A stretch of DNA of 24,128 nucleotides from positions 1 through 24,128 of the forward strand of contig JBGFSC010000050.1 of the NCBI GenBank assembly GCA_041694815.1, given 5' to 3'. Below are positions 67-24,059 of this stretch, in pieces. Source of the DNA: Elusimicrobiota bacterium. Lineage in GTDB: Bacteria > Elusimicrobiota > Elusimicrobia > UBA1565 > JACRDR01. Each line of letters begins with the position of its first letter. Position 1 is the first letter of the stretch. The translations under genes and the position numbers were made by a program. Below the pieces are notes generated by a model. That model was given only the letters and a program-made list of their open reading frames with translations. It had not been told where the DNA came from and did not search any database.

Positions 67-83
67 CCAACAGATTTCTCGTT

Positions 84-114
84 CTTTCGGTAGGTGGTAA
101 CGATGTGCCCGACG
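84..114 (-). repeat. Left copy of a long-range inverted repeat (core 95-114)
   Basis: Reverse complement of 95-114 is CGTCGGGCACATCGTTACCA, identical to 24029-24048. The match extends outward to 28/31. Confidence 0.9.
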
Positions 115-189
115 AGTTCTAAGTATCTGGGCCCTCTGGGGCAGAGTCCCTGGGACCAAAGACTGCTGACCATCTAGGCCTTTGGCCAC

Positions 190-218
190 CTGCCGGATCT
201 CACCCAGAACCGTACAAT
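190..218 (+). promoter_or_regulatory. Putative sigma70 promoter for the 259..1002 gene
   Basis: CTGCCG (190-195)-N17-TACAAT (213-218), followed by a GGAGG RBS at 251-255. Confidence 0.45.
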
Positions 219-258
219 TTCTCCGGAGGACTGCTGCGCCCGTTAGTTTTGGAGGAAT

Positions 259-1002
259 ATGAAAAGAACCTTGATTGCCTTGTCGCTGGCTGCGACGAAT
301 TTCGGCACGTATGGCTATACCGAAGATGTGGAGGACCAGCTGCGTCGAGCAGCAACTCGATCGCGTCCCATCAGCCAAGATACCCGCAAAAAAATCATGG
401 GCGTATTCGGCAAGGTATCAAGCACGAAATACTCAGGCAAAGTGCGATGGCAGAATGACCTGCCCGAGGATACGCCGTTCAAGAAAATCGGCTTGATCGC
501 GGCGATATGCATAGGAGGTCCGAGCTTTGAAGCCTATATCCCGGTCGGAGCGGTGGATTCCTCAGTGGAGGATCCTAATCTGGCCGAATACTTCATCCTA
601 GCCGTCACTAAAGCTGAAAAAGGCTGCGGTGATACGGGACCGACAAAGACCCAATACTCCCAGCCGCTATATTTCAAGGATTTCCCACCAGAACCTGCCG
701 ATGTTCTTCTGACCGGACTCGTCGGCAAGCATCAAACAACAGGCGCACGAACGGTGCCTGACCTTCTCCTTGGACCCGGAAAGAAATGCTCGTTGCAAAT
801 GAACGGCAAAGAGCATGTCTCTATGCCGCCGGAGCTGGAGGCCCTGGAGGGTAAAATCGTCACCTGCAAAGGGCTGCTGTTCGGATCGGTTTTGACGGTA
901 GAAAAATGCCAGCTAGTCAATGGTTTCGTCAAAAACCCTCAGTCGCCATCGGAACTCGTGCGTGTGCACGATGGAGTTATCGTCGGGCCCGGCCCCAGCT
1001 AA
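259..1002 (+). CDS. Hypothetical protein, probably exported (247 aa)
   Basis: ATG with GGAGG just upstream. Signal-peptide-like start MKRTLIALSLAA. No family recognised. GC is lower than in the operon (30/60 at 361-420 versus 38/60 at 1741-1800 and 46/60 at 3241-3300). Confidence 0.7.
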   Translation: MKRTLIALSLAATNFGTYGYTEDVEDQLRRAATRSRPISQDTRKKIMGVFGKVSSTKYSGKVRWQNDLPEDTPFKKIGLIAAICIGGPSFEAYIPVGAVDSSVEDPNLAEYFILAVTKAEKGCGDTGPTKTQYSQPLYFKDFPPEPADVLLTGLVGKHQTTGARTVPDLLLGPGKKCSLQMNGKEHVSMPPELEALEGKIVTCKGLLFGSVLTVEKCQLVNGFVKNPQSPSELVRVHDGVIVGPGPS

Positions 1003-1049
1003 CGATCGCCTAATCGCTTTTTCGATACGTAAACGTCATCGCGGCCCGA

Positions 1050-1079
1050 TTGCCTTCAAGCATCGGCGCGGATTACACT
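1050..1079 (+). promoter_or_regulatory. Putative sigma70 promoter for the small gene
   Basis: TTGCCT (1050-1055)-N18-TACACT (1074-1079). The predicted +1 falls at about the ATG at 1086. Confidence 0.4.
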
Positions 1080-1085
1080 AGGCCT

Positions 1086-1283
1086 ATGGAAACCATGCGA
1101 TTTCAGGGGTCCGATTGGACCCCCGTCTGGCACGGCGCCGAGCCGACCGCCACACTCGCCTTCGACATGCTCCAAGGCAACGGCATCGAGGCGCTCAAGC
1201 GCGCGGAGGCCGAAGTCGAGATCCTCGTGCATCCCCAGGACGCCGACACCGCCAAGGAGCTGCTCCAGGACTGGGCGATTTAG
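1086..1283 (+). CDS. Small DUF2007-like (putative signal-transducing, ferredoxin-like fold) protein, 65 aa
   Basis: Pattern W..V......A.L....L..NGIEA....VEILVHPQDADTAKELL matches what I know of DUF2007. Host-like codon use. ATG 1086 (or 1095) is preferred over TTG 1050. Confidence 0.65.
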   Translation: METMRFQGSDWTPVWHGAEPTATLAFDMLQGNGIEALKRAEAEVEILVHPQDADTAKELLQDWAI

Positions 1284-1302
1284 CGCGCATCCGCGCTTCT
1301 TT
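1282..1302 (+). terminator. Possible weak intrinsic terminator
   Basis: AGCGCG-CATC-CGCGCT hairpin followed by TCTTT, overlapping the TAG stop. Confidence 0.4.
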
Positions 1303-1304
1303 GA

Positions 1305-1333
1305 TTGCCGCGCCGGAGGCAATTTGGTAAACT
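1305..1333 (+). promoter_or_regulatory. Putative main operon promoter (sigma70, extended -10)
   Basis: TTGCCG (1305-1310)-N17-TAAACT (1328-1333) with TG at 1325-1326. It lies about 85 nt upstream of the guaB ATG. Confidence 0.6.
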
Positions 1334-1417
1334 ATCTCCGACGGAAAATGCTCAATTCCGACCGGCGGCTGAGCGAAGTTCCCCACGGGCCGCCGCTCGT
1401 TCTCCACGAGGTCTTCT

Positions 1418-2581
1418 ATGGCGTTTTTCATCGGCCGTGACCGAGAGGCCAGGCGAGCTTATGGCTTCGACGAGATCGCGCTGGTCCCGGGGCAGATCAC
1501 CGTCAATCCGGAGGAAGTCGACACCAGCCTGAAGCTGGGTAAGGTCCGGCTCGAGATTCCCTTTTTGGCATCGGCCATGGATGGCGTCGTCGACGTCCCC
1601 TTCGCCATCGCGATGGGCAAGCTGGGCGGCCTGGGCGTGCTCAATCTCGACGGCATCAACACCCGCTACGACAAGCCCCGCGAGGTCGTAGCGCAGATCG
1701 CCTCCGCCGATCCGGAAACCGCCACGAGGCTCGTGCAGGACCTCTACCGCGAGCCGACCAAGGAGAATCTCGTCGCCCGGCGCGTCGAGGAGATCAAGAA
1801 GGCCGGGGTGCACTGCGCGGTCAGCACCATCCCCCAGAACGCCGAGCGCTACGGTTCGATCGCGGCCGAGGCCGGCTGCGACCTCTTCGTCGTACAGTCC
1901 ACCGTCACGACGGTCCGTCATAAAGCAACCAAGTACAAGCCCTTCGACATCGCTCAGTTTTGCAAGAAGATGCCCATCCCCGTCATCGTCGGCAATTGCG
2001 TGACCTACTCCGTCGCCCTCGAGCTAATGGAGGCGGGCGTCTCGGCGCTTTTGGTCGGGGTGGGCCCCGGCGCCGCCTGCACCACCCGCGGCGTGCTGGG
2101 TTTGGGCGTACCGCAGGTCACCGCTACCGTCGACTGCGCCGCCGCGCGCGACTTCTTCTACAAGAAAACCGACCGCTACGTGCCCATCATCACCGACGGC
2201 GGCATGTCGACGGGCGGAGACATCTGCAAGGCCATCGCCTGCGGATCCGACGGGGTCATGGTCGGCTCGGCCTTCGCCAGGACCAAGGAGGCCCCGGGAC
2301 AGGGATTCCATTGGGGCATGGCCACCCCCCACCAGAACCTGCCGCGCGGCACCCGTATCCACGTCGGCGTCACGGGCACCCTCGAGGAGATACTCTACGG
2401 CCCCTCGAGGCTCGACGACGGATCGCAAAATCTAGTCGGGGCGCTTAAGACCTGCATGGGCTCGGTCGGCGCCTCCAACATCAAGGAGATGCAGCTCGCC
2501 GAGATCATCATCGCCCCGGCCATCAAGACCGAGGGCAAATTGTTCCAGAAGGCCCAGCGCATCGGGATGGGGAAATCGTGA
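1418..2581 (+). CDS. guaB: IMP dehydrogenase family protein, CBS-less GuaB3/cyanobacterial-like type
   Basis: [19 protein letters not shown], catalytic Cys loop [21 protein letters not shown]. 387 aa with no CBS pair. Adjacent to guaA. Confidence 0.9.
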
Positions 2582-2600
2582 GCCTCCCCCGGGGGGAGGC
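2582..2600. repeat. GC-rich palindrome between guaB and guaA
   Basis: GCCTCCCCC-G-GGGGGAGGC, with perfect 9-bp arms. No U-tract follows. Confidence 0.75.
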
Positions 2601-2624
2601 GAGCATTGAGGGGGGCTATACATC

Positions 2625-4148
2625 TTGATTGTCGTTTTAGATTTCGGTTCTCAGTACACCCAGCTCATCGCGCGGCGCTTGCGCGAGCTTGAGATATACT
2701 CCGAGATATTGCCTTACAACGCCCCGGCCCGGGAGATACTGGCCAAGGCCCCTAAGGGACTGATCCTTTCGGGCGGGCCCGCCAGCGTGCACCGCTCGGG
2801 GAGCCCTCGACTCGACTTGGGTCCCTTCTCAGGCCTGCCGCTGCTGGGGATCTGCTACGGGATGCAGCTCTTGGTGCACTCGCACGGGGGAGCCGTGGCC
2901 CCGGCGGGCAAGCGCGAGTACGGCGACGCCACGATCTCCGTGGTGGAGCCGGACCCGCTCTTCGACGGGATGGAAGGCGAGCTCAAGGTCTGGATGAGCC
3001 ACGGCGACGGCGTCTTGAAGCTCGGCAACGGCTTCCGCGTGCTCGCGCGCACCCCCGCCGCCCCCTTCGCGGCCATCGCCGACTCCGGCAGGCGCTGGTA
3101 CGGGGTGCAGTTCCACCCCGAGGTGGCGCATACCCCGCAGGGGGCCCGCCTGCTCGAGAATTTCGCGCGGCGCATCTGCTCCGACGAACAGCGCTGGACC
3201 CCGGCCGCGCAGTTGGAACGCTCCCTGGCCGTGATCCGCGAGCTTGTGGGCCCGGGCCGGGCCGTATGCGCCCTGTCCGGCGGCGTCGACTCCTCGGTGG
3301 CGGCCGCGCTGGCGCATCGCGCGCTGGGGGGGCGCCTGCATTCCTTCTACGTCGACACCGGGCTCGGGCGCCTGGGGGACCGCGAGCGCATGCGCGAGCT
3401 TTTCGCGCGCCGGCTGGGCATGCGGCTTAAGATCGTCGACGCCTCGTCCTTGTTCTTGCGGCGGCTGGCCTCGGTCTGTGATCCGGAGCGAAAGCGCAAG
3501 ATCATCGGGCGCGCGTTCATCGAGGTGTTCGAGTCCCAGGCGAGGAGGATCCGGGGGGCGGACTTCCTGGTCCAAGGCACGCTTTACCCCGACGTGATCG
3601 AGTCCGTCTCGGTGCACGGCCCTTCGGCCGTCATCAAGAGCCACCACAACGTAGGCGGGCTTCCCAAGCGGATGCGCCTGCGCCTCGTCGAGCCGCTCCG
3701 ATTCCTGTTCAAGGACGAGGTGCGCCGGCTCGGGCGCGAGCTCGGCCTGCCCGAGGAGGTGCTGGGAGCCCATCCCTTCCCCGGGCCAGGGCTCGCCATC
3801 CGCGTCCTCGGCGCCGTGACCAAGGACAGGCTCGAGCTGCTGCGGCGGGCCGAGGCGATCGTCCAGGAGGAATTCATGAAGAGCGGCTTGTACGAAAAGA
3901 CTTGGCAGGCATTCGCCGTGCTCCTGCCCGTCAAATCGGTCGGGGTCATGGGCGATGAGCGGACGCATCAGCCGGTCGTGGCGCTGCGCGCCGTAGGCAG
4001 CGTCGACGGGATGACCGCCGATTGGGCCCGCCTCCCCTACGATCTGCTGGCGCGGATCTCGAGCCGCATCACCTCGGAGGTGCGGGGCGTCAACCGCGTT
4101 GTCTACGACATCAGCTCCAAGCCGCCCTCCACGATCGAATGGGAATGA
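2625..4148 (+). CDS. guaA: GMP synthase (glutamine-hydrolysing)
   Basis: LDFGSQY, GICYGMQ, QFHPEV, SGGVDS, IKSHHNVGGL, C-terminal KPPSTIEWE. TTG start with a GAGGGG RBS. Confidence 0.98.
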   Translation: MIVVLDFGSQYTQLIARRLRELEIYSEILPYNAPAREILAKAPKGLILSGGPASVHRSGSPRLDLGPFSGLPLLGICYGMQLLVHSHGGAVAPAGKREYGDATISVVEPDPLFDGMEGELKVWMSHGDGVLKLGNGFRVLARTPAAPFAAIADSGRRWYGVQFHPEVAHTPQGARLLENFARRICSDEQRWTPAAQLERSLAVIRELVGPGRAVCALSGGVDSSVAAALAHRALGGRLHSFYVDTGLGRLGDRERMRELFARRLGMRLKIVDASSLFLRRLASVCDPERKRKIIGRAFIEVFESQARRIRGADFLVQGTLYPDVIESVSVHGPSAVIKSHHNVGGLPKRMRLRLVEPLRFLFKDEVRRLGRELGLPEEVLGAHPFPGPGLAIRVLGAVTKDRLELLRRAEAIVQEEFMKSGLYEKTWQAFAVLLPVKSVGVMGDERTHQPVVALRAVGSVDGMTADWARLPYDLLARISSRITSEVRGVNRVVYDISSKPPSTIEWE

Positions 4149-5047
4149 ACGCGCTGGCGCTAATCCAAAGCCGCATTCCAGGCTTGCCTGAACCCAAGCG
4201 GGGAAAGGTGCGGGACATCTATGATCTCGGCGACACGCTGCTCATCGTGGCGACCGACCGGCTATCGGCCTTCGACGTGGTCTTGCCCACGCCGATCCCC
4301 GATAAGGGCCGGGTGCTTACCCAGCTGTCGGAATTCTGGTTCCGCAAGATGCGCCGGATCGTTCCCAACCATTGCATCAGCACAGACCTCGAGGAGATCC
4401 GCCGCCATTTGCCCGCAGGGGCATCGCTCGATCCAAGGGAATTTTCAGGGCGCAGCATGCTGGTACACAAGGCGCGCCGCATCGACGCCGAATGCGTGGT
4501 GCGCGGATACCTGGCCGGATCGGGCTGGAAAGAGTACAGGAAAACGGGTTCGGTCTGCGGACACGCGTTGCCCGCGGGACTTCAGGAGGCGGAAAGGCTT
4601 CCACAGCCGATCTTCACTCCTTCCACGAAGGCCGACGTGGGCCATGACGAGAACATCGATCGAGCCGCCTTGGCGAGCGCCATCGGCCCGGCCTTGGCGG
4701 ATCAGCTAGAGCGCCTCAGCCTGGCCCTCTACACCGAGGCGGCAGAAATGATGCGCGCACGGGGCCTGATCCTCGCCGATACCAAATTCGAGTTCGGACT
4801 TCTCGACGGCCAGACGATCTTGATCGATGAGGTCCTGACTCCGGATTCCTCCCGATTTTGGGACGCTTCCCTTTATAAGATCGGGACTTCCCCCGAAAGC
4901 TTCGACAAGCAGTTCGTGCGAGATTACCTCGAAGCCGTCGGATGGGACAAGCGGCCCCCGGGGCCCGAGCTTCCCCCGAATGTCGTCGCTGGGACCACGG
5001 GGCGTTATCAAGAAGCGCTCGCCAGACTGACCCAGGGGGCCGCGTGA
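4145..5047 (+). CDS. purC: SAICAR synthetase (300 aa)
   Basis: GKVRDIY, ATDRLSAFD, LADTKFEFG, DEVLTPDSSRFW, SFDKQFVRD. Start reassigned to the ATGA overlap with guaA. Confidence 0.97.
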   Translation: MNALALIQSRIPGLPEPKRGKVRDIYDLGDTLLIVATDRLSAFDVVLPTPIPDKGRVLTQLSEFWFRKMRRIVPNHCISTDLEEIRRHLPAGASLDPREFSGRSMLVHKARRIDAECVVRGYLAGSGWKEYRKTGSVCGHALPAGLQEAERLPQPIFTPSTKADVGHDENIDRAALASAIGPALADQLERLSLALYTEAAEMMRARGLILADTKFEFGLLDGQTILIDEVLTPDSSRFWDASLYKIGTSPESFDKQFVRDYLEAVGWDKRPPGPELPPNVVAGTTGRYQEALARLTQGAA

Positions 5048-5523
5048 CGCCCTACCGGGTGGAGATATTCGGCAAGCCCGGCTTCAGCGACCCTGCCGGT
5101 ACCGAGCTCCTCGCCCAATCCGCTTCCGTGGGACTCTCGGGCGCGGCCGAGATACGCGCGGGTAGGATTTACGAGATCGTCGGGCGCCTTTCCCCGGCCC
5201 AAGTCGAGCAGGCCGCCCGGGAACTCCTGGCCGATCCCGTGACCCAGGATTACCGGATCAATGAACAAGCGGTGCCTCCCGCCTTCCTGCTGAGTCCCCA
5301 TTGGCGCGTCGAGATATGGCTCAAGGACGGCGTCTCGGACCCGGAGGAGGAGAGCTTGCGTAAGGGCCTACGCGACCTCGGCTTGCCGGCTCCCGATTCC
5401 ATCCGCGGCGGACGCGTCTACAAGATCGTCGGGCGCTGCCAGCTGCCGCAGATCGAGCGCGTCGCGCGCAAATGGCTCTCGAACCCGCTTATCCACCGCT
5501 CCAGCGTCGAGGCGCCGCGCTGA
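5044..5523 (+). CDS. purS: FGAM synthase subunit PurS with two tandem PurS domains (159 aa)
   Basis: Two repeats of RVEI..K.G.SDP...IR.GR.Y.IVGR...L.[DN]P. GTGA overlap with purC. Directly precedes purL. Confidence 0.88.
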   Translation: MTPYRVEIFGKPGFSDPAGTELLAQSASVGLSGAAEIRAGRIYEIVGRLSPAQVEQAARELLADPVTQDYRINEQAVPPAFLLSPHWRVEIWLKDGVSDPEEESLRKGLRDLGLPAPDSIRGGRVYKIVGRCQLPQIERVARKWLSNPLIHRSSVEAPR

Positions 5524-7985
5524 TGCCCGTCAAGACGTTCAAGCCCGAGGCGCCGCCACCCGCATCCGCCCGCCCGGCGATCGGACTGCGCGACGCCTCG
5601 CCCGCCAAGCTCCAGGATTTAAACCGGCGGCATGGCTGGTCGCTCAACGCGGCCGAGCTTGCCGCCATCTGCCGCCACTTCCGTTCGGTTGGACGGGAAC
5701 CGAGCCGCGCGGAGATGGAGACGATCGCGCAGACTTGGTCGGAGCATTGCAAGCATAAGACGTTCACCGGCGAGATACGCTACCGTGAAGGCGGGCGGAC
5801 CCTGCGCTTTGGCAATCTGCTGCGCGAGACGGTGATGGAGGCCACCCGCCGCCTCAAGAAACCCTGGTGCCTGTCGGTATTCAAGGACAACGCCGGGGTC
5901 GTCGCCTACGATCAGCGCTGGGCCCTGGCCTTCAAGGTGGAAACCCACAACCACCCCTGCGCCCTGGAGCCCTACGGAGGCGCGTCTACCGGCGTCGGAG
6001 GCGTCATCCGCGACATTCTCGGCGTGGGCCTGGGGGCCAAGCCCGTGCTCGGAACGGACGTTTTCTGCCTCTGCCCTCCCGACGGCGCCGACCCCGTCGA
6101 AGGCCCTGCGCCCCGCCTAATGCTCGAGCGCGTCGTCGCCGGAGTGCGCGATTACGGCAACCGCATGGGCATCCCCACATCCGGCGGCGCCATCTGGTTC
6201 GATGAGGCCTTCCGCTTCAATCCCCTCGTCTTCTGCGGTAGCGTCGGACTGCTGCCGCGTTGGGCGGTCCGCAAGGAAGTACGGCCAGGCGACGTCATCG
6301 TCGCCGTTGGCGGCCGCACGGGCAAGGACGGACTGCATGGAGCCACCTTCTCCTCGTCCGGACTGCACGGGGATTCCCCCTCCTCCGCGGTACAGATCGG
6401 CCACGCCATCATGGAAAAGCGCATGCTCGACGTCCTGCTCAAGGCGCGCGACGCCAAGCTCCTGCGCAGCGTCACTGACTGCGGCGCTGGCGGTTTCTCC
6501 TCGGCCATCGGCGAGCTCGGCGCGGGCTGCGGGGCCCGCGTGAAGCTCGACGAGGCCAAGCTCAAGGTCCAGGGCCTCGAGCCGTGGGAAATATGGCTCT
6601 CGGAATCGCAGGAACGCATGATCCTCGCCTGCCCCCCAAAGAATTTAAAGGCATTGCTCGACCTTTTCGACGCCGAGGATGTGGAGTACTCGCTGCTTGG
6701 AGAATTCACCGCCGACCGGCGCCTGAAGGTGGAATTCCGCGGAGAAACGGTCATCGATCTGCCGATGTCATTTTTGCACGAGGGGCTGCCTAAACGGACG
6801 CTTGAAGCGCAGTGGAATCCTCCACCCAAAGTCTCCGCCTCTAGAATTAAATCGGGGTCCGGCTCTTGCTCCGATGCACTGTATGCCCTTCTCTCGCACT
6901 GGAACGTCTGCAGCCGCGCCTGGGTGATACGCCAGTACGATCACGAGGTGCAGGGCGGGGCCGTGATCAAGGCCCTGCAGGGCACCGCCCACGACGGGCC
7001 CGGCGACGCCTGCGTGCATTGGCCGCACGCGGCGACCGGCGAGGTCGACGGGTTTTCGGCCGTCGCGATCGCCCACGGCCTCAATCCAAATTACGGGCGG
7101 CTCGATCCCTACGCCATGGCTCTTTGCTGCGCCGACGAGGCTCTGCGCAACCTAGTGAGCGTCGGCGCCGACGTCTCGCGCGCCTCCTTCCTGGACAATT
7201 TCTGCTGGGGCAATCCCGAGGATCCGCGCACGCTCGGCTCCCTGGTTCGCGCGGCCCTGGGATGCCGCGACGCGGCGCTCGGCTACCAAGTGCCGTTCAT
7301 CTCGGGCAAGGACAGCCTCTACAACGAGTACCGCGACGCCCGTGGAAACAAGCACTCGATCCCCGGCACCCTGCTGATCTCGGCCGTGGCGCCGGTGGAT
7401 GATTTTCGCAAGGCCCTCACCCTGGACTTCAAGGCTCCCGGGAACGCGATCTACCTCGTCGGCTGGACGGCCGAGGAGATGGGCGGATCGCTCTACTCCC
7501 AATGGCGGGGAGACCCACTGGCCGGAGCCGTTCCTTTGCCGTACCCTAAGCGGGCCCGGGCCTGCTTGCGCCTCTTATCGGCGGCCATCGCCAAGGGGCT
7601 CGTCTCCGCCTGCCACGACCTTTCCGAGGGAGGCCTTGGGGTCGCCGCCGCCGAGATGGCCTTTTCGGGTGAGATCGGCGCGCTCCTGGAGCTCGACGAG
7701 GTCTGTCGCCCCAAGGGCCTTCATTCCAACGAAGCGGTGCTTTTCTCCGAATCGCCCAGCCGCTTCCTAGTCGAGGTCGCCTGCGAGAAGGAGAAGGAGT
7801 TCCTCAAGGCGATGAAGGGGGCCATCCTCGCGCGCGTCGGCAGCACCCTCGCCAATCCGGTCCTGCGGATCAAGGGCACCGACGGCTCGGCGCTGCTGGA
7901 GGAGCCCCTGGCCAAACTCAAGGAGGCCTGGATTCGGACGCTGCCCTTGGCCATGCTCGAGCGCCGCAACGGGGCCCACTCATGA
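5523..7985 (+). CDS. purL: FGAM synthase subunit PurL (820 aa)
   Basis: WSEHCKH, KVETHNHP, DCGAGG, SESQERM, QYDHEV, ISGKDSLYN, HDLSEGG. TGATG overlap with purS. Confidence 0.97.
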   Translation: MPVKTFKPEAPPPASARPAIGLRDASPAKLQDLNRRHGWSLNAAELAAICRHFRSVGREPSRAEMETIAQTWSEHCKHKTFTGEIRYREGGRTLRFGNLLRETVMEATRRLKKPWCLSVFKDNAGVVAYDQRWALAFKVETHNHPCALEPYGGASTGVGGVIRDILGVGLGAKPVLGTDVFCLCPPDGADPVEGPAPRLMLERVVAGVRDYGNRMGIPTSGGAIWFDEAFRFNPLVFCGSVGLLPRWAVRKEVRPGDVIVAVGGRTGKDGLHGATFSSSGLHGDSPSSAVQIGHAIMEKRMLDVLLKARDAKLLRSVTDCGAGGFSSAIGELGAGCGARVKLDEAKLKVQGLEPWEIWLSESQERMILACPPKNLKALLDLFDAEDVEYSLLGEFTADRRLKVEFRGETVIDLPMSFLHEGLPKRTLEAQWNPPPKVSASRIKSGSGSCSDALYALLSHWNVCSRAWVIRQYDHEVQGGAVIKALQGTAHDGPGDACVHWPHAATGEVDGFSAVAIAHGLNPNYGRLDPYAMALCCADEALRNLVSVGADVSRASFLDNFCWGNPEDPRTLGSLVRAALGCRDAALGYQVPFISGKDSLYNEYRDARGNKHSIPGTLLISAVAPVDDFRKALTLDFKAPGNAIYLVGWTAEEMGGSLYSQWRGDPLAGAVPLPYPKRARACLRLLSAAIAKGLVSACHDLSEGGLGVAAAEMAFSGEIGALLELDEVCRPKGLHSNEAVLFSESPSRFLVEVACEKEKEFLKAMKGAILARVGSTLANPVLRIKGTDGSALLEEPLAKLKEAWIRTLPLAMLERRNGAHS

Positions 7986-8755
7986 AGCTGCCCAAGGCCC
8001 TGATCCTGCGCTGCGCCGGCACTAATTGCGAACGGGAAACGGCCAATGCCTTCGCCATGGCCGGGGCCCGTCCCGAGCTGGCGCACATCAACGAGCTTAA
8101 GTCCGGCCGCGTGAAGCTGCTGGAGGCCGATATCTTTGTCATCCCGGGTGGTTTTTCCTACGGCGACGACGTCGCCGCGGGCCGGTTGCTCGCCAACGAG
8201 CTCAAACGCTTCGTCGTCGACCTGCGCCAATTCATCCGTTCCGGCCGCCCGGTGCTGGGCGTCTGCAACGGCTTCCAGGTTCTCGTCAAGGCCGGGTTCC
8301 TGCCAAACAACCGCCAGGAGCTGCAGTCGGCGAGCTTCACCTTCAACGACTCCAACCGCTTCGAGGCCCGCTGGACGCACCTGCGCATCAACACCCATTC
8401 GAACTGCCTCTTCACCAAGGGCCTGCCCGAAATGATCGAGCTGCCCGTCGCCCACGCGGAAGGCAAGTTTGTCGTCAAGACGCCGAAGGTGCTCGAGGAG
8501 CTCAAGCGCAGCAATTCGATCGTGCTGCGCTACGTCAATGAGACGGGAGAGCCCGCCGGCTATCCCTACAACCCGAACGGCTCCGTCTTCAACATCGCGG
8601 CCATCTCCAATCCCGAAGGAAACTGCCTGGGCCTAATGCCCCACCCGGAACGATTCATCACGCGCTACCACCATCCCAACTGGACCCGGCAGACCTTCCA
8701 CAAGGAGGGCGTTGGGCTCGAGATGCTGCGCAACGCCGTGCGGCACGTCTCATGA
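7982..8755 (+). CDS. purQ: FGAM synthase glutaminase subunit PurQ
   Basis: GTNCE, GGFSYGD, GVCNGFQ, AHAEG, NPNGS, MPHPER. Confidence 0.97.
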   Translation: MKLPKALILRCAGTNCERETANAFAMAGARPELAHINELKSGRVKLLEADIFVIPGGFSYGDDVAAGRLLANELKRFVVDLRQFIRSGRPVLGVCNGFQVLVKAGFLPNNRQELQSASFTFNDSNRFEARWTHLRINTHSNCLFTKGLPEMIELPVAHAEGKFVVKTPKVLEELKRSNSIVLRYVNETGEPAGYPYNPNGSVFNIAAISNPEGNCLGLMPHPERFITRYHHPNWTRQTFHKEGVGLEMLRNAVRHVS

Positions 8756-8770
8756 CGTTTTGAACCTTTT

Positions 8771-11403: not shown

Positions 11404-11861
11404 CTATTTTCATGGGGAGCGAATCGGATCGGCCGATTCTTTCCAAGGCGGCGGAGGCGCTCAAAGCGCTGGGCGTCCCTTTCGTGTGGAAGGTCGCCTC
11501 GGCGCATCGCAGCCCCGCCTACCTCCATGAGCTGGTACTAAAACTCGACAAGGGCGGGGTCCAGGTCTTCATGGCGGGCGCGGGAGGAGCCGCCCACCTG
11601 GCGGGAGTCGTGGCCAGCCTGACGCAGAAGCCCGTCATCGGGGTGCCGCTGTCCTCCAAGCTCAACGGCCTAGACTCGCTCCTGTCGACCGTGCAGATGC
11701 CCCGCGGCGTCCCGGTGGCGACCGTGGCGATTGACAACGCCGAGAACGCGGCTCTGCTGGCGGCGCAGATTTTATCCCTGTCGGACGCGCGCCTGGCGAA
11801 GGCCTTGGCGGAGCGCCGACGCACGGAGGCCGCCTCCATCGCCGCCCAAGGACTTTCATGA
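11385..11861 (+). CDS. purE: N5-CAIR mutase (class I PurE, 158 aa)
   Basis: [46 protein letters not shown] at 11374-11380. Confidence 0.96.
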
Positions 11862-15850: not shown

Positions 15851-16434
15851 ACCTCGACGGCGAGCAGCTCCTGCGCGAGATCGAGCGGCGCGGCGCGCTG
15901 CAGCGCGGGCATTTCCTCCTTTCCTCGGGCCTCCACAGTGACCAGTACGTCCAATGCGCCCTGCTTTTCCGCGACGGCGCGTTCGCCGAATCTCTAGGCC
16001 GAGCACTGGCCTCGCTGGCTCCCGAACCTCCCGACTGCGTCGTTTCTCCGGCCTTGGGAGGGCTGCTCATCGGCCACGAGGTGGCCAAGGCGCTGCGGGC
16101 GCCGTTTATCTTCGCCGAGCGCGAGGGCGGTGCCATGGCGCTGCGGCGCGGGTTCTCTCTCGAGGAGGGGAGGACGGCCCTCATCGTCGAGGATGTCTTG
16201 ACGACGGGCAAGTCCACACTGGAGGTAGCCTCGCTGCTGCGTTCCCTCGGGGCGCGGGTCGCCGCAGTCCTCTCGGTCATCGACCGCGGCGTGGAACAGT
16301 CCTCGCTCGGCTTTCCCGCGCGCAGCCTGCTCCGGCTCCCGCTGCGCGCGCAGCCCCCCGGGGAGTGCGGGCTGTGCCGATTGGGCGCTCCGCTGGTCAA
16401 GCCGGGAAGCCGGCCGGAGCCCAAGCCGTGCTGA
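15847..16434 (+). CDS. pyrE: Orotate phosphoribosyltransferase (Thermus-like type with C-terminal CxxC)
   Basis: GHFLLSSGLHS, PALGG, FAER, PRPP motif VEDVLTTGKS, C-terminal CGLC...KPGSR. Confidence 0.95.
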   Translation: MNLDGEQLLREIERRGALQRGHFLLSSGLHSDQYVQCALLFRDGAFAESLGRALASLAPEPPDCVVSPALGGLLIGHEVAKALRAPFIFAEREGGAMALRRGFSLEEGRTALIVEDVLTTGKSTLEVASLLRSLGARVAAVLSVIDRGVEQSSLGFPARSLLRLPLRAQPPGECGLCRLGAPLVKPGSRPEPKPC

Positions 16435-17396
16435 CGTATAAAAAAGCCGGCGTCGACATCGACCTGGCCGACCGCTTCGTCGAATTCCTGCAAAAGAAAT
16501 CGCCGGCCATCGGCGGCTTTTCCGGGCTCTTCCCACTCAAGTTTACGGGCGCGGGGGATTACTGCCTGGCCGCCTGCACCGACGGCGTGGGCACCAAGCT
16601 TAAGATCGCATTCCTGCTGGACCGGCACGAGACCGTCGGCATCGACCTCGTCGCCATGTGCGTCAACGACCTCATCACCTGCGGCGCCAAGCCGCTTTTC
16701 TTCCTGGATTATTACGCCACCGGCAAGCTCCATCTCGAGCGCTCCAAGCGAATTCTTTCAGGGATACTCGAAGGATGCCGGCAGGGCCGGCTGGCCCTCT
16801 TGGGCGGGGAGACCGCCGAGATGCCCGGCTTCTACCATGGCGGCGAATACGACTTGGCCGGGTTCGCGGTGGGCATCGTCGCGCGCTCGGAGATCATCGA
16901 CGGCACGAAGATATTCCCCGGCGATCTCATCCTCGGGCTTCCTTCCTCGGGGCTTCATTCCAACGGGTATTCCTTGGCGCGCAAGGCCCTCGGCCCCCGC
17001 GAGCTGCGGCGGCTCGGGCCGCGGCTGCTGACTGCGACGCGCATCTACGTAGAGGAGATCGCCTTGCTGCAGCGCGCTTTCCTGGAAGCCGGCCACATCA
17101 TCCTCGGGATGGCCCACATCACGGGCTCCGGCATCCCCGGCAACCTCCCGCGCGTGCTGCCGCGCGGCTGCAAGGCGGTGCTTCATACGAAGGCCTGGAA
17201 GGTGCCTCCCCTTTTCCGGCTTATCCAGGAGAAGGGCGGCATCGGGGAGGCCGAGATGTGGAGCACCTTCAACATGGGCATCGGCATGGCGATCGTGATC
17301 CGGCCCAATTCCCTGGCCCTGGCCCTCAAGCTCCTGCCCCAGGCCCGCCTTATCGGCGAGATCATCGGCGGAAAACAAGAGGTGCTGCTCAAGTGA
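16428..17396 (+). CDS. purM: AIR synthetase (322 aa)
   Basis: TYKKAGVDI, TDGVGTK, AMCVND, GGETAEMPG, SGLHSNGYSL, HITG, FNMGIG. GTG start at 16428. Confidence 0.97.
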   Translation: MLTYKKAGVDIDLADRFVEFLQKKSPAIGGFSGLFPLKFTGAGDYCLAACTDGVGTKLKIAFLLDRHETVGIDLVAMCVNDLITCGAKPLFFLDYYATGKLHLERSKRILSGILEGCRQGRLALLGGETAEMPGFYHGGEYDLAGFAVGIVARSEIIDGTKIFPGDLILGLPSSGLHSNGYSLARKALGPRELRRLGPRLLTATRIYVEEIALLQRAFLEAGHIILGMAHITGSGIPGNLPRVLPRGCKAVLHTKAWKVPPLFRLIQEKGGIGEAEMWSTFNMGIGMAIVIRPNSLALALKLLPQARLIGEIIGGKQEVLLK

Positions 17397-19594
17397 TGCG
17401 TATCGCCGTCTTCGCGTCCGGGGAAGGGACGAACCTCCAGGCCTTGATCGACGCCGCGCGCAACGGGCGCATCCGCGCGAGCGTTGCCCTGGTCGTCTCG
17501 AGCGTCGGCGATGCCGGCGCGCTGCGCCGGGCCGCCCGAGCCGGGATTGCCGGGGTCGTGCTGCGGCCCGCGGACTACGCCGGCCCGGATGAATACAGCG
17601 CCGCCTTGGCGGCCCTCTGCAAGCAGCACGAGATCGGCCTCATCTGCCTCGCCGGTTTCCTGCTGCAGCTTAAAAGCTCGCTTTTGGAAGCCTACCCCCA
17701 GCGCATCCTCAACATCCACCCCGCCCTGCTCCCCGCCTTCGGCGGCAAGGGCATGTACGGCTCCCGCGTCCACGAGGCGGTGCTGCGCTCCGGAGCCAAG
17801 GTCAGCGGGTGCACGGTGCATTTCGTCGACGAGGTCTACGACCACGGCCCGATCATCTCCCAAACAACGGTCCCGGTACTGGCGAACGACACGCCTGGCT
17901 CGCTCGCCGCGCGCGTGCGCGCGCAGGAGCATTGGGCCTATCCGGAGGCCGTCCGCCTATTCTGCGAGGGCCGTCTCCGCGTCGGTCCCGGGGCAAGGGT
18001 GGAGCTGCTACCGTCACCCAGGGAAGAGTCGCCGCGCATACGCCGGGCCCTGGTGTCGGTGGCTGACAAGACGGGCCTCGTGGAGTTCTGCCGAGGCATC
18101 CATGAGCTGGGGCTGGAGATTGTCTCGACTTCGGGAACGGCCAAGGCGCTGCGCGAGGCCGGCCTCGAGGCCCGCTCCCTAGACTCCATCACCGGCTTTC
18201 CGGAGATACTGCAGGGCAGGGTCAAAACCCTCCATCCCAAGATCCACGGAGGCATCCTGCTGCGGCGTGGAGACCCGGAGCAGGAGCGCGAGGCCGCCAA
18301 CTTCGGCCTGGAGCCGATCGACATGGTCGTCGTCAATCTCTACCCCTTCGCCCGAGCGGCCGCCGGCGCCCATTCTCCTTACAGCCGGGAGGTGATAGAG
18401 CAGATCGACATCGGTGGGGTCACGCTGATCCGGGCGGCCGCGAAAAACTTCGAGAACGTCGCCGTCGTCGTCTCGCCGGAAGACTACCCCGCGGTGCTCA
18501 AGGAGCTCGCGCTCGGGCAAGGGCAGCTAGCCCTGGAAACCCGCCGACGCCTCGCCTTGTCGGCCTTCCGGCACACGGCCGGCTATGACGCGATGATTTC
18601 GGCCGCCTGGGACGAAACGCCTTCCCCGGAGGCCGAGGGCGGGCCGTTCCCGCAAACGATGACCTTTTCGCTCGCGAAGGCCCAGGAGCTCCGCTACGGA
18701 GAGAACCCGCACCAGCGCGCCGCGCTGTACACGCGCCAATCGCCCGGGAGCCGGGCTTCCTTCGAGCAGCTCCAGGGCAAGGAACTCTCCTTTAACAACC
18801 TACTCGACGCCGCGGGCAGCTGGGAGGCCGCCTGCGAATTCTCCGAACCGGCCGCGGTGATCTTCAAGCACGGCACGCCCTGCGGGATCGCTACTGGCAC
18901 TTCCGCGGCGCAAGCCTTGGAAAGGGCCTGGGCCTGCGACCCCCTATCTGCCTTCGGGGGCGTGATCGCCGTCAACCGTCCGTTCGACCGAGCAATGGCC
19001 GATTTTCTCTCCAAGCGTTTCGTGGAGGTGGTTTCGGCTCCCCAATTCGAACCGGAGGCCGCGTTCGTCCTGCGCGAGAAGGCGAACCTGAGGCTATTGG
19101 AGCGCTCCGCCGCGCCGGGAGCGCGGCTGGAATGCCGCAGCGTCGGAGAGGAGTTCTTGGTCTACGAGCCGGATCGTCTGCTCTTCGGCGATGCGGTGCG
19201 CGTCGTGACCCGCCGCAAGCCCGCGGCCGAGGAGGAAGAGGCCCTGCGCTTCGCCTGGACCTGCTGCAAGCACGTCAAGAGCAACGCGATCGTCCTGGCG
19301 GACGCCCGATCGACCGTCGGCATCGGGGCGGGGCAGATGTCCCGCGTCGACTCGGTGCACATGGCCGGGGCGAAATACAAGGCCTTCCTCAAGGAGAATC
19401 CGGAGCCGCGGCCACTGGTGCTAGCCTCCGACGCCTTCTTTCCCTTCCGCGACGGGCTCGACGCCGCAGCCGCGTTGGGGATCACCGCCGTCATCCAACC
19501 CGGGGGCTCGGTGCGCGATGCCGAGGTCATTGCCGCCGCCGACGAGAGGGGGCTGGCGATGCTGTTTACCGGCATGAGGCACTTTAAACATTAA
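17396..19594 (+). CDS. purH: Fused GAR transformylase (PurN) plus AICAR transformylase/IMP cyclohydrolase (PurH), 732 aa
   Basis: PurN part: ASGEGTNLQAL, LAGF, NIHPALLP, GCTVHFV, DHGPII. PurH part from about 18038: RALVSVADK, STSGT, GRVKTLHP, IDIGG, LRYGENPHQ, KSNAI, GAGQMSR, SDAFFPF, RHFKH. No stop between the two. Confidence 0.95.
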   Translation: MRIAVFASGEGTNLQALIDAARNGRIRASVALVVSSVGDAGALRRAARAGIAGVVLRPADYAGPDEYSAALAALCKQHEIGLICLAGFLLQLKSSLLEAYPQRILNIHPALLPAFGGKGMYGSRVHEAVLRSGAKVSGCTVHFVDEVYDHGPIISQTTVPVLANDTPGSLAARVRAQEHWAYPEAVRLFCEGRLRVGPGARVELLPSPREESPRIRRALVSVADKTGLVEFCRGIHELGLEIVSTSGTAKALREAGLEARSLDSITGFPEILQGRVKTLHPKIHGGILLRRGDPEQEREAANFGLEPIDMVVVNLYPFARAAAGAHSPYSREVIEQIDIGGVTLIRAAAKNFENVAVVVSPEDYPAVLKELALGQGQLALETRRRLALSAFRHTAGYDAMISAAWDETPSPEAEGGPFPQTMTFSLAKAQELRYGENPHQRAALYTRQSPGSRASFEQLQGKELSFNNLLDAAGSWEAACEFSEPAAVIFKHGTPCGIATGTSAAQALERAWACDPLSAFGGVIAVNRPFDRAMADFLSKRFVEVVSAPQFEPEAAFVLREKANLRLLERSAAPGARLECRSVGEEFLVYEPDRLLFGDAVRVVTRRKPAAEEEEALRFAWTCCKHVKSNAIVLADARSTVGIGAGQMSRVDSVHMAGAKYKAFLKENPEPRPLVLASDAFFPFRDGLDAAAALGITAVIQPGGSVRDAEVIAAADERGLAMLFTGMRHFKH

Positions 19595-19595
19595 G

Positions 19596-19604
19596 TGATA
19601 CAAT
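19596..19604 (+). promoter_or_regulatory. Putative internal extended -10 promoter for carAB
   Basis: TG-A-TACAAT in an AT-rich patch, 7 nt upstream of ATG 19612. No clear -35. Confidence 0.45.
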
Positions 19605-19611
19605 GGATGAA

Positions 19612-20751
19612 ATGAAGAAACCGGCCGTTCTCGCCCTCGAAGATGGCTCGGTCTTTCGCGGCTTCTCTTGCGGCGCCCAAGGCGAGTCGTCCGGCGAGCT
19701 GGTCTTCAATACCTCCATGATGGGCTACCAGGAGGTACTCACCGATCCCTCCTACAAGGGGCAGCTCGTCGTCATGACGTATCCGCAGATCGGCAATTAC
19801 GGGATCACCGCCGCCGACTACGAATCGGCGCGGCCGTTCTTGGAAGGGTTCGTCGTGTGGGAACTCTGCCGCCATCCCTCGAACTGGGAGTCGGTGGAGA
19901 CCGTCGATTTCTTCCTCAAACGCAACGGAACCCCCGGCATCGAAGGGGTCGATACCCGCGCCTTGACGATACGCCTGCGCCAGGCGGGCTCCCTCCGGGC
20001 CGTGCTCTCTAGCGTCGACCTGGACGCGGAGCGCCTGATCCGGAAGGCGCGCCAATGCCCGCCTATGTCGGGGCAGAACCTAGCCAAGGCGGTCAGCTGC
20101 AGCAAGCCGTACGAATGGACGGGCCGGCGCGATGGGCAGCGTTCCGCTGGCTCGAGAACCCGTGGGCACCACGTCATCGTCTTTGATTTCGGCGTCAAGC
20201 GCGGGATCCTGCGCTGCCTGGGCTCCTTGGGCTGCCGCGTGAGCGTCGTGCCCGCTTGGACCTCCGCGGCGGAAGCGCTCGCCCTGCGGCCGGACGGGAT
20301 CGTGCTCTCCAATGGCCCCGGCGACCCCGAGCCCTTAAGCGACGTCGCCAAGGAGATCCGGCGCCTGGTCGAGACGGGGCTGCCCACCCTCGGCATCTGT
20401 CTCGGCCACCAGCTGCTTGGCCTCGCCTTCGGGGGACGGACATTCAAGCTCAAATTCGGCCATCACGGCTCCAACCATCCGGTCCAAGACCTACGGACGG
20501 GGCGCATCGAGATCACGTCCCAAAACCACGGCTTCTGCGTGGACATGCAATCTTTGCCCGCGGACCTCGAGACCACCCACATCAACCTCAACGATCGGAC
20601 CTCGGAGGGCATGCGGCACCGAAGCCTCCCCATCTTCTCGGTGCAATACCACCCGGAGGCTTCCGCGGGTCCGCACGATTCGCGCTACATTTTTGAGCGC
20701 TTCGCCCAGGCGATGGCCCGGCGCGAGGGAGGCCGGAAGGCTCATGCCTAA
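19612..20751 (+). CDS. carA: Carbamoyl-phosphate synthase small subunit (alternative start 19603)
   Basis: [51 protein letters not shown]. Confidence 0.98.
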
Positions 20752-23700
20752 GCGCACCGATATCCAGAAAATCCTCGTCGTGGGCTCGGGCCCCATCGTC
20801 ATCGGCCAAGCCTGCGAGTTCGATTATTCGGGCACCCAAGGCGCCAAGGCCCTAAGGGAGGAAGGCTACAACGTCGTGCTAGTCAATTCCAACCCGGCCA
20901 CCATCATGACCGACCCGCAGCTGGCCGAGCGCACCTATATCGAACCGTTGACCCCCGAGTTCCTGGAGATGATCATCGAGAGGGAGCGGCCGCAGGCAAT
21001 GCTCTCGACGCTGGGGGGCCAGACCGCGCTCAACCTGGCCACGGCGCTGGCCGAGCGAGGGGTGCTCGCCAAATATGGCGTCGAACTGCTCGGCGCCAAG
21101 CTGGAGGCGATCCGCAAGGCGGAGGACCGCCAGTTGTTTAAGGCCGCCATGCAGGAGGCTTCGCTAGACCTTCCCAAAAGCCGCATCGTCACCGACATCC
21201 GGGAGCTACAGGAGGTCTCGCGCGACCTGGGATTCCCAATCATCATCCGCGCCTCCTTCACCTTGGGCGGAACGGGCGGCGGTATCGCCTACCATCTAGA
21301 AGAGCTCCGCTCCTGTGTGGCGGCCGCCTTGGAGGCCAGCCCCGTTAAGCGCGTGCTGCTGGAGGAATCCGTCATCGGCTGGAAGGAATACGAGCTCGAG
21401 GTGATGCGCGACGGCAAGGACAATTTCGTGGTCATCTGCTCCATCGAGAACCTCGACCCGATGGGGGTGCACACTGGGGATTCCATCACCGTCGCCCCGG
21501 CCCAGACCCTGACCGACCGGCAATACCAGGAGATGCGCGACGAGGCCAAGCGCGCCGTCAGTGTCATCGGGGTCGAGACGGGCGGCTGCAACGTCCAGTT
21601 CGGCGTCGACCCCAAGACCGGCCGGCGCGTGATCATCGAGATCAATCCGCGCGTCTCGCGCTCCTCGGCCCTCGCCTCCAAGGCCACTGGATTTCCGATC
21701 GCCAAGATCGCCACGAAGCTGGCCGTCGGCTATTCCTTAGACGAGATTCCCAACGACATCACGCGCAAGACCCCGGCCAGCTTCGAGCCCGCCATCGACT
21801 ACGTCGTCACGAAGGTGCCCCGCTTCGCCTTCGAGAAGTTCCAAAGCTCCAGCGAATATACCCTAGACACCACGATGAAATCGGTGGGCGAGGTGATGGC
21901 GATCGGCCGCACCTTCAAGGAATCCATCCAGAAAGCCTTGCGCAGCCTCGAGATCGGCAAGGCGGGCCTGGAATCGGGGGAATTCGCCTTGGGGGAGCAG
22001 CCCTCAGCCGCGGAGGAAGAGCGCCTGCTGCGCAAGCTTTCCTTACCGTGCGCCGAGCGTGTATTCGCCGTCAAGGCGGCCTTGCAGCGAGGGCTTTTCC
22101 CCAAGGAAATCGCCGATATCTCCTCCATCGATCCGTGGTTCCTGCACCAGTTTCAGGAGCTGGTGGCCTTCGAGCAGGCCTTGAAGCGTTCACCCCTGAC
22201 CCCTCAGCTCCTGCGGGAAGCCAAGGCGCTCGGTTTCTCGGACGAGCAGATCGGGAAGCTCTGCGCCCGCTCGGCGGCATCGGTGCGCCGGCTACGGCGG
22301 CGTTGGGATCTGCGCCCCGCCTTCTCCTCCGTCGATACCTGCGCGGCGGAATTCGAGGCCGAAACTCCCTATTTCTACTCCACCTACTCCTCGACTCCCC
22401 CGCCCCGATCCGTCCGCAAGGGCGAGGGGCGCGCGAAAAACCGCAAGATCGCGATACTCGGCTCGGGCCCCAACCGCATCGGGCAGGGCATCGAATTCGA
22501 CTATTGCTGCGTGCACGCCTCGCAGGCCCTCAAGGCGGCGGGATACCGGACGATCATGATCAACTGCAACCCAGAGACGGTATCCACCGACTACGACATC
22601 TCCGATCGCCTGTATTTCGAGCCGCTGACCTTGGAGGACGTTCTCGAGGTGCTCGACTTCGAGCGGCCGGAGGGCGTGATCGTCCAATTCGGCGGTCAGA
22701 CCCCGCTCAACCTCACCCAGGGCCTGCACCGCGCCGGGATCCGGATCCTGGGGACTTCCTCCGCCTCGATCGACATGGCCGAAAGCCGGGAGCGCTTCGG
22801 CGCGCTACTTAAGCGCCTGCGCATCCCCGCCCCCGCTTACGGCATCGCCGGCGGCGTGCGCCACGCCCTGCGCATCGCGCGGCGGATCGGCTATCCCGTG
22901 ATGGTGCGCCCCAGCTACGTGCTGGGCGGGCGGGCCATGGAGACGGTCTATGACGAAGCGAGCCTCAAACAATACGTGCTCCGGGCCGCCAAGGCCTCCG
23001 AGCACCCTGCCTTGCTCATCGACCGATTCCTTTCCGACGCCACCGAGGTCGATGTCGACGCGGTCTGCGACGGCAAGAATGTCTTCATCGGCGGCATCAT
23101 GGAGCATATCGAGGAGGCTGGTATCCACTCGGGCGATTCCGCGTGCACGATCCCCGCGCATTCCCTAACTCCCGAGCAGCTCGAGCGGATCTCGGACTAC
23201 ACGCACCGCCTGGCGCGGGCCCTGAAGGTGGTGGGGCTGCTTAACATCCAATTCGCCGTCAAGGACAACGTCGTTTACGTCCTGGAGGCCAATCCCCGTG
23301 CCTCGCGTACCGTGCCATTCGTCAGCAAGGCCACGGGCCTTCCCTTGGCCAAGATCGCGGCCCGGGTGATGGCCGGCGCGTCGCTTAAGGGCCTCCTCCC
23401 CAAGGAGCTCCTCGGGCACAAGATCCCTCCGCTGCCCTATACGGCCACCAAGGAGGTGGTCCTGCCCTTCATCAAGTTCCGCGGCGTGGATCCCATGCTA
23501 GGGCCGGAAATGAAGTCCACGGGCGAGGTGATGGGCATCGACCTCGATTTTTCCCGTTCCTTCGCCAAGGGCCAGCTGGCCTCCGGCATGTCGCTGCCCG
23601 TATCGGGTGCGGTGTTCATCAGCGTGCGCGATCAGGACAAGCCGGAAATACTGCCGGTGGCCACCGCCCTGCGCCAATTCGGCTTCACGATCCACGCCAC

Positions 23701-24025
23701 GAAGAACACCCACCGCTTCTTTGAGCGGCACGGCATCGAGGCCAAGCACGTCTACAAGTTGGGCGAGGGAAAGCCCGACGCCATCGACCTGCTCAAGCAG
23801 CGGAGCTTGAGCCTCGTCATCAATACCCCCTCGGGCAAGCGCTCCCATTCCGACGGCTTCGCCATACGCCGCACCGCCCTGGAGCTCAATATCCCGACCA
23901 TCACCAACATCCATTCCTGCCAAGCCGCCTTGGGCGCCGTGGCGGTGCTGCGCCAGGCGCCTCTACAGGTCTGCGCGCTCCAGGATTATCACAAGCGGCT
24001 CGCCTATAAGGCGCCCAGCTTGTGA
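20744..24025 (+). CDS. carB: Carbamoyl-phosphate synthase large subunit (1093 aa)
   Basis: [37 protein letters not shown], second half [28 protein letters not shown]-terminal MGS domain. Confidence 0.99.
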
Positions 24026-24028
24026 GGA

Positions 24029-24059
24029 CGTCGGGCACATCGTTACCAGCTAACGAACG
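24029..24059 (+). repeat. Right copy of the long-range inverted repeat (core 24029-24048)
   Basis: CGTCGGGCACATCGTTACCA starts 3 nt after the carB stop and is the inverted match of 95-114. Confidence 0.9.

Follow-up and report, generated by a model that had tools for sequence, protein, structure and literature searches.

What are the two matching repeats that face each other across a cluster of nucleotide-biosynthesis genes in the Elusimicrobiota bacterium assembly GCA_041694815.1? The window analyzed here is the whole of contig JBGFSC010000050.1 (24,128 nt; contig C5 of the 54-contig genome G000), and its positions 95-114 are the exact reverse complement of positions 24029-24048 (20 nt). A first-pass annotation had reported this match, together with its extension to 28 of 31 positions as an inverted pair (84-114 versus 24029-24059), and had proposed either the ends of two related elements lying outward or the borders of a mobile gene cassette. 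We find, with practical certainty, that two separate copies of an IS481-like insertion sequence (IS) of ~1.2 kb, lying in direct orientation, account for the repeats, which are its left and right terminal inverted repeats; the element is present in at least nine copies, is collapsed in the assembly and breaks the contig at both ends. We also find, with hardly less confidence, that this IS is site and orientation specific, its left end lying 7 nt outside the promoter-distal box of a tandem palindrome array.

The repeats are the ends of two copies of an IS481-like element

Both the 20-nt match and its extension were reproduced, and the match lies beyond chance, as the annotation had held: in 200 order-3 Markov simulations of the window, exact inverted matches with separated arms never exceeded 19 nt. 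The DNA outside the repeats is indeed more AT-rich than the cluster, with G+C contents of 45.8% in 1-120 and 50.0% in 24023-24128 versus 66.3%. Bases 1-120 recur identically at 9 contig ends of G000, and bases 24023-24128 recur identically at 8 contig ends and in one internal 88-nt remnant. The two end types have the 20-nt core in common; the true element ends, at 120 and 24023, lie 6 nt inward of the exact match, and the outer 6 nt differ between them. As both copies are on the minus strand, they are direct repeats, and the apparent inverted repeat is the left end of one copy facing the right end of the next.

Four-base-pair duplications of the target link six right ends to left ends on other contigs (C5-C17, C10-C9, C23-C15, C32-C33, C36-C50 and C49-C3/C38); at other lengths the flanks gave a single pair at 3 bp and no pair at 5 or 6 bp. 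A further end, C39, can be joined to C38 through a paralogous locus on C8 that lacks the IS. This leaves without a partner the window's left end, C12 and C11, the partner of C12 lying inside another collapsed element. The suggestion of two outward-lying elements was therefore correct, each end type occurring at nine places in the genome with 4-bp duplications, and the window is bracketed by repeats because the assembler breaks contigs at a collapsed repeat.

The sequence at each end of the window can be read accordingly. The left copy (1-120, minus strand) comprises its left inverted repeat (~86-120), with the shared core at 95-114 (minus strand), and a non-coding leader, its body lying beyond the contig end; the expected 4-bp duplication follows at 121-124 (plus strand), its length inferred from the paired sites and its partner absent among the assembled right ends. 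The right copy (24023-24128, minus strand) is preceded by its duplication at 24019-24022 (plus strand), which equals the flank of the left end on C17, and carries the core at 24029-24048 (plus strand). The annotation had placed this copy 3 nt past the carB stop and had seen no transposase in the window; in fact the element's first bases, 24023-24025, are the stop codon itself, and the last 35 transposase codons, without a stop, occupy 24024-24128 on the minus strand.

Could the ends instead have been joined to contigs from another organism during assembly or binning? The element body is absent from the genome, and a 49-nt flank common to two contigs may be chimeric, as such an artefact would predict. 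We consider it the least probable of all the readings weighed here, as matching duplications join different contigs, contamination is 0.48%, and another genome, G298, has a complete element of this geometry in the interior of a 92-kb contig. The shared 49-nt flank joins the end of C3 to the start of C38; the paralogous locus (C8:6530-7844) shows that the original flank of C38 differed and pairs with the C39 end, which would point to chimeric assembly or to gene conversion among IS copies. Separately, the 88-nt right-end remnant (C37:8810-8897) sits isolated in a contig interior, with neither a left end nor an array.

The complete relative was found among 300 genomes of the class with the C40 paralog, a single-copy G000 protein that carries rve_3, as query. 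The G298 element is 1236 bp long, with a 4-bp duplication, a left end in AG and a right end in TG. The first 157 nt of the window, including the box beside the element, align to it without gaps, as do the right ends; over 1-120 the identity is 70/120, and the alignment places the transposase start ~17 nt beyond the contig end. (A short peptide read off the left end was rejected as the transposase start, since the G298 start lies 137 nt inside the element, beyond the window's 120 nt.) The G298 transposase has 369 aa, matches HTH_28, HTH_32, HTH_23 and rve_3 above the Pfam cut-offs, and has a candidate catalytic triad, D158-D230-E273. Its best family model is NF033577 (IS481) at 151 bits (E 4e-44), under the 224-bit cut-off, the C40 paralog reaching 133 bits; NF033594 (ISNCY_2) gives 37 bits against a cut-off of 250, over the N-terminal part only. 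The resemblance to IS481 that the annotation had suggested thus holds as to the nearest family and fails as to membership: because the score lies below the cut-off, we file the element as IS481-like, short of assigning it to the family. Identity with IS110/IS1111, considered because of the subterminal repeats, is disfavored by the variable 4-bp duplications and the DDE relative.

In G000, G298 and a third genome, G446, the right end reads TGA and the left end AGA, so the termini do not form TG...CA; a TGT terminus is the norm for prokaryotic IS481 elements. The target duplication is 4 bp in G000, in G298 and at one pair in G446 (L210 with L219), inside the 2-15 bp range. Using a profile built from the 120 listed homologs of the C40 paralog, we placed the right-end peptide at the transposase C-terminus (E 1.2e-5, versus 0.031 for the best of 500 shuffles). 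The transposase open reading frame (ORF) of the G000 element has no internal stop, and the flank supplies tails of 4-88 residues.

Searches with the element's ends did not recover its body. The 20-nt core gave 7 matches among genome contigs and 2 among metagenome contigs; none of the contexts was related (8 were Streptomyces-type and 1 was of another kind), and the likeness to the ends did not extend past the core. Left-end DNA gave only short chance matches in 40 relatives, and an 18-nt core with 2 mismatches allowed gave 1-2 matches in each of 23 of 400 genomes of the phylum, where 27 of 27 inspected loci were chance. The C-terminal peptide was found in 0 of 300 class genomes, in one spurious repeat protein among representatives, and in neither the protein set nor the Atlas. 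With the C40 paralog as query, no relative appeared in viral contigs and only distant ones in plasmids. Within the left end itself, the best conserved part is the stretch just before the transposase start (1-55, minus strand), which in G298 holds a 43-codon basic ORF (L205 1397-1528) with no Pfam match; the stretch might serve as a promoter or a binding site, or be expressed as a small ORF.

The left end faces a tandem palindrome array at a fixed distance

Every left-end flank has a 16-bp palindrome that begins at offset 8 and a second one 23-25 nt onward. These boxes belong to arrays with the consensus TAGGCC-N4-GGCCTA and a period of 23-25 nt, the last box ending 22 nt before a -10-like hexamer; the 7-nt gap between element and array is the 4-bp duplication plus 3 nt. 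To guard against circularity, we retrained the scoring matrix on 139 boxes lying more than 300 nt from contig ends. The best box pair still fell at offset 8 in eight of the nine left flanks, with scores that no more than 4.2e-5 of genome positions attain, while the ninth, that of the window, has a weak box at offset 8 (score 1.8) and two more boxes in register. The array threshold was reached by none of the nine right-end flanks and by none of 26 ends of another multicopy IS4 element; thus 9/9 left ends face an array, versus 0/9 right ends. C3 and C38 share their 49-nt flank, which leaves eight independent left flanks, and in all eight T, G, G and C are invariant at offsets 8, 10, 11 and 13.

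The arrays are a general feature of the genome. Box pairs at a score of 18 number 159, versus 2 in a Markov control. There are 120 arrays genome-wide, 5 of them intragenic, and 15 of the 120 abut an array-targeting IS. The nearest genes look exported in 48 of 83 cases, versus 687 of 2424 overall. The -10-like hexamer follows the last box by 22 nt at 19 of 48 arrays before signal-peptide-like genes, versus 4 of 48 on the far side. The array pattern is present in 101/101 genomes of the order, with reversed controls near zero.

At the window's left end the array consists of a degenerate, promoter-distal box (128-143, score 1.8) that begins 7 nt from the IS end, a second box 23 nt after it (151-166, score 7.5) and a promoter-proximal box (175-190, score 8.4), none of them assigned a strand. 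A -10-like hexamer on the plus strand (213-218) lies 22 nt past the proximal box, the modal spacing genome-wide, and is followed by a 247-aa ORF with a signal-peptide-like start (259-1002, plus strand), the presumed regulated gene, which belongs to no NCBIfam or Pfam family. A scan of 1-300 for consensus sigma-70 promoters gave no -35/-10 pair, and the window held no Rfam or tRNA match.

With a fixed promoter position, an intergenic setting and conservation, the array has the attributes of an operator, and we give about even odds to the prediction that it is the binding site of a dimeric host activator. The center of the last box would lie near -42, the position usual for class II activators. 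Crp-type genes occur in 41/41 genomes and are therefore non-discriminating; the three inspected were not tied to the motif. One of them, beside an array on C34 (C34:35006-35770), was rejected as the regulator on account of a presumptive FNR-like cysteine cluster and a nearby presumptive FNR-type box. A Crp/FNR-type gene ends just before an array both there and in G005 (C306:4531-4791), with the FNR-type box between gene and array in G000.

The geometry recurs in other genomes and follows the box

Targeting extends outside the host's order: the single G298 end and 8 of 10 G446 ends are on target, both genomes belonging to another order. The G298 left end lies 7 nt from a box pair whose distal box scores 2.5. 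Eight of the ten G446 left ends have a box at offset 8 (scores 7.9-20.5), one of them with its best pair at 9; of the remaining two, one has a strong second box only, in register, and one has no box. At locus L221 of G446 the half-site is lacking (score -6.4), yet the register is kept.

Two sites in G000 separate the box from its surroundings. One IS481-like copy, at C12, lies within the end of an IS4 element and once more 7 nt from a rebuilt box. At the C39/C38 site, comparison with the C8 paralog, which has no IS, likewise shows a 4+3 spacing. Because the spacing is kept at both, the position is set by the box and not by the flank.

Targeting of arrays by IS481-type elements in general was considered and rejected: at 50 loci, drawn from 143 matches in the order, no array lay within ~400 nt of the ORF, distances being counted from the ORF and not from mapped element ends. 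The C40 paralog lies 70 nt from an array, out of register, and relatives in G019, G126 and G057 have no array. The single-contig genome G220 carries five identical IS481-type copies (L122-L126), none near an array, and so provides a non-targeting control from the same order. Contig ends of G000 also include those of other collapsed elements, none of which abuts an array: 13+13 ends belong to an IS4 type, and three further sets number 3+4, 2+2 and 4+4, whose end motifs suggest IS1202, IS21 and an unplaced type.

An unrelated IS4-family element enters the same boxes

G000 contains a second element, of the IS4 family, with 7 left and 6 right ends. It enters the distal box itself, its right end towards the promoter. 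Its terminal inverted repeats are flanked by duplications that form five exact pairs at 9 bp and none at 8 or 10 bp. The duplications cover box positions 6-14, and the element's terminal CA rebuilds the box in 6/6 cases (scores 10.0-13.7). Right ends lie in the box at 6/6 sites in G000 and at 2/2 sites in each of G009, G165 and G213 (scores 4.4-21.2 in the latter three), or 12/12 in four genomes. The duplications are exact in G009, one exact and one mismatched in G165, and mismatched at C52 of G213, a genome in which one further pattern match was not an element end and one flank was too short for a second box. The G009 relative is 95.5% identical to the G000 element over 112 nt of the left end; as a proxy for the G000 copy, it is assigned to IS4 by NF033592 (259 bits versus a cut-off of 115) and by Pfam DUF4372 and DDE_Tnp_1. 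Members of a sister clade carry another repeat, and those of full length are 40-57% identical; at none of their 21 distinct loci does the element lie in a box, a count drawn from 30 fetched matches out of 32, with no end visible in two.

Random insertion and subsequent selection, with only harmless intergenic insertions surviving and some lying near arrays by chance, would draw on a genome that is ~88% coding (by in-house gene calls) and arrays that are intergenic. Such a process cannot yield one offset and one orientation, and the fixed register refutes it; the other IS4 element of G000 (13 left and 13 right ends) and the 21 sister-clade loci likewise show no link to arrays. We regard it as very improbable.

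How the arrays might be recognized

We lean, by a small margin over even odds, towards a model in which the transposase-DNA complex docks on a host regulator bound at the array. The array would be bound by a dimeric host activator, and the complex would dock on the free outer edge of the bound activator; docking would fix distance and orientation while sparing the promoter, making the array a safe landing site. By analogy with copy-out/paste-in elements, the asymmetry could arise if, in a circle, the canonical right end (TG) attacked the non-canonical left end (AG). A junction at C49 105-144, in which a 4-nt spacer separates a 28-nt remnant (the first 16 nt of the right end plus the last 12 nt of the left end) from the full right end after it, can be fitted to such a circle or to a collapsed tandem remnant. 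An inverted pair beside this remnant resembles DnaA boxes.

Several observations favor a protein platform. Only 122 of 6394 TRGGYC half-sites begin an array (102 of 924 in non-coding DNA), and at L221 the register is kept without a half-site; moreover, the array is present throughout the order and is rarely intragenic, as counted above.

Direct read-out, in which the inner half-site of a box and its neighbor are read by each transposase with no need of a host protein, the two families having converged, is possible but distinctly less likely. It would account for the four invariant bases in all eight independent flanks and for an IS4 duplication that spans box positions 6-14, and it could draw on the 152 of 238 strong intergenic boxes that lie in arrays anyway. 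There is also a precedent in ISRm22, an IS4-family member that enters repetitive extragenic palindromes (REPs; PMC1525189). Against direct read-out, weak or absent distal boxes with strong neighbors are still hit in register (1.8 in the window, 2.5 in G298, -6.4 at L221), the distal outer edge alone is used, and the IS4 element cuts away from the palindrome axis and in one direction only, unlike what a symmetric consensus would give.

More doubtful still is that the transposases sense a bend, a cruciform or a distortion produced by tandem palindromes or by the promoter complex, with no contact to a regulator. The boxes are palindromic, DDE enzymes generally bend their target (PMC10045372), and site architecture is one of the two options raised for IS1202 at xrs (10.1101/2022.12.17.520857). 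The boxes are degenerate, though, and their arms often mismatched, so stable hairpins seem unlikely; and single-base precision at 17 clear sites in three genomes better fits protein contact.

Several points weigh against docking on a bound regulator, or against the wider account of targeting. The regulator is only postulated, and the binding of the array is only predicted. As 152 of 238 intergenic boxes scoring at least 10 lie in arrays, the box could be read directly. The IS4 element cuts inside the box, from which a bound protein would first have to leave, and its targeting transposases have no extra domain (389-390 aa, versus 388 aa). The outward half-site is better conserved at distal than at proximal edges (17 versus 8 of 41), and half-site quality together with selection against promoter-wrecking proximal insertions could explain part of the one-sidedness. 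One of the ten G446 ends is off target. The gene and signal-peptide calls behind the counts of exported-looking neighbors came from crude in-house scripts. Finally, the transposase of the G000 element was not recovered, its family assignment coming from end homology and a 39-residue peptide.

Taking these together, we hold somewhat short of even confidence in the broadest form of the proposal, that two unrelated DDE lineages (IS481-like and IS4), in at least two orders, evolved docking on a master activator of exported-protein genes, for which arrays would be safe landing sites where the box is rebuilt or the upstream stop replaced.

The nucleotide-biosynthesis cluster is host DNA

Between the two IS ends, family matches identify guaB3, guaA, purC, purS, purL, purQ, purF, purD, purE, pyrB, pyrC, pyrD, pyrF, pyrE, purM, purN-purH, carA and carB (1418-24025, plus strand). 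Comparison with relatives indicates that this cluster is vertically inherited and not IS cargo. Its gene order is kept in G001, G002 and G003, from three other genera of the family, with proteins 51-86% identical, and the fetched contigs of these genomes hold no copy of the 20-nt core at up to 4 mismatches. In G004 and G005 (77% and 88% complete), nothing matched guaB3 or carB at E 1e-50, so that the order is shared by three of the five family genomes searched. In G001 and G002 the gene after carB is preceded by an unoccupied array and is homologous to the first gene of C17, in support of joining C5 to C17.

These results bear on the annotation's proposal of a composite transposon, an invertible segment or a transferable prototrophy cassette, in which the repeats would be recombination sites or transposon ends. 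The 23.9-kb segment does lie between two direct copies of one IS, so excision or carriage is possible in principle, and for the left copy, whose outer end is not assembled, no matching duplication is present among the contigs. However, the right copy has its own duplication with C17, and direct copies delete rather than invert the DNA between them. No recombinase was found among the 20 long window ORFs scanned. The multiple genomic copies of each end, which the annotation had named as evidence against a cassette, are present; the target-site duplications it had proposed looking for exist and belong to single IS copies, the right copy's being shared with C17; and the relatives retain the gene order free of the repeat. 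We therefore think a cassette very unlikely.

The insertion at the right end removed one CarB residue and supplied the carB stop. Elsewhere, the element's terminal TGA ends a called gene at four of eight contig-end sites (window 24023-24025, C11, C23 and C32). Three of six paired sites formerly had their stop as the box's first codon and have lost one residue; only 3 of 41 unoccupied oriented arrays share that layout.

On the left, C11 was considered as the window's neighbor by elimination and rejected, because in G002 it is the end of C40 that matches the genes lying upstream of guaB3; at this point the assembly probably lacks a short contig. The C40 end (L056 1294-2445) holds the single-copy IS481-like paralog, its left end cut by a multicopy IS4 element, and this site probably lies near the window's left end. 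Within the cluster, PurN and PurH share one reading frame (16658-19594), with continuous alignments in G002 and G003, and the fusion looks conserved. The genes purH and carA are adjacent in G000 and G003 and are separated by ~5 kb in G002 (C87; L069 6283-11364).

Comparison with known systems

The repeat pair as first described is an assembly-break effect and implies nothing about a mobile nucleotide cassette. What the locus reveals is a new class of target for site-specific ISs, a presumed promoter operator, reached independently by two families; the known targets of such elements are recombination sites, REPs and attTn7. The literature searched, outside of which lay most subscription journals and ISfinder, held no report of ISs targeting operator arrays or of this motif. 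Fixed offsets from a bound protein that leave the neighboring gene unharmed are known from Tn7 at attTn7 (through TnsD) and from yeast Ty3 and Ty1 at RNA polymerase III promoters. Tn7 brings a targeting protein of its own to a single site, and the Ty elements are eukaryotic retrotransposons. Unlike Tn7, the 1236-bp element has no targeting gene that we could find. If docking on the regulator is correct, simple ISs without a targeting gene would do in bacteria what Ty3 and Ty1 do by tethering to a host transcription factor, and both IS lineages would sit beside a regulon that shapes the cell surface. The non-targeting sister clades are natural controls for asking whether plain transposases read DNA or a bound host protein, complete elements of 1.2-1.3 kb are at hand in G298 (IS481-like) and G009 (IS4), and the transposases could act as bait for the predicted regulator of exported proteins in an uncultured group.

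REPs are entered by IS1397, ISKpn1 and ISPsy8 (IS3), IS621 and ISPa11 (IS110), and ISRm22 (IS4) (PMC1525189). Here as there, several families converge on a dispersed palindrome, with an IS4 member inside it. Those REPs are near-identical and cut at the symmetry axis, whereas the present motif is degenerate, its conservation reaches past the order, it keeps a set distance to a -10 hexamer, and insertion occurs off-axis or outside the palindrome in a single orientation.

IS481 elements, with duplications of 2-15 bp, mostly 6 (PMC10045372), share with the present element a single ORF, HTH_28/HTH_32 and rve_3 domains, inverted repeats of ~30 nt and a right end that begins TG. The element departs from them in its model score (151 versus 224 bits), its AG left end, its right end in TGA and not TGT, its 4-bp rather than 6-bp duplication and an ORF without a stop inside the element.

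The closest precedent is the ISAba32 subgroup of the IS1202 family, at XerCD (xrs/dif) sites. ISAba32 elements insert 5-6 bp from xrs with the left end towards XerC, and the authors of that report leave the mechanism open (10.1101/2022.12.17.520857). Both systems pair an IS481-related HTH and DDE transposase with a fixed short distance from a protein-binding site, the left end facing the site; both allow several elements per site, and both raise the question of contact or architecture and the idea of a safe haven. They differ in that the target here is a presumed promoter operator array in ~120 copies, not xrs, that the duplication is 4 bp versus 5-6, and that the gap is the duplication plus 3 nt versus the duplication alone. 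The element described here further stands apart in its 369-aa transposase with a weak N-terminal ISNCY_2 match, and in sharing its target with a second, unrelated family.

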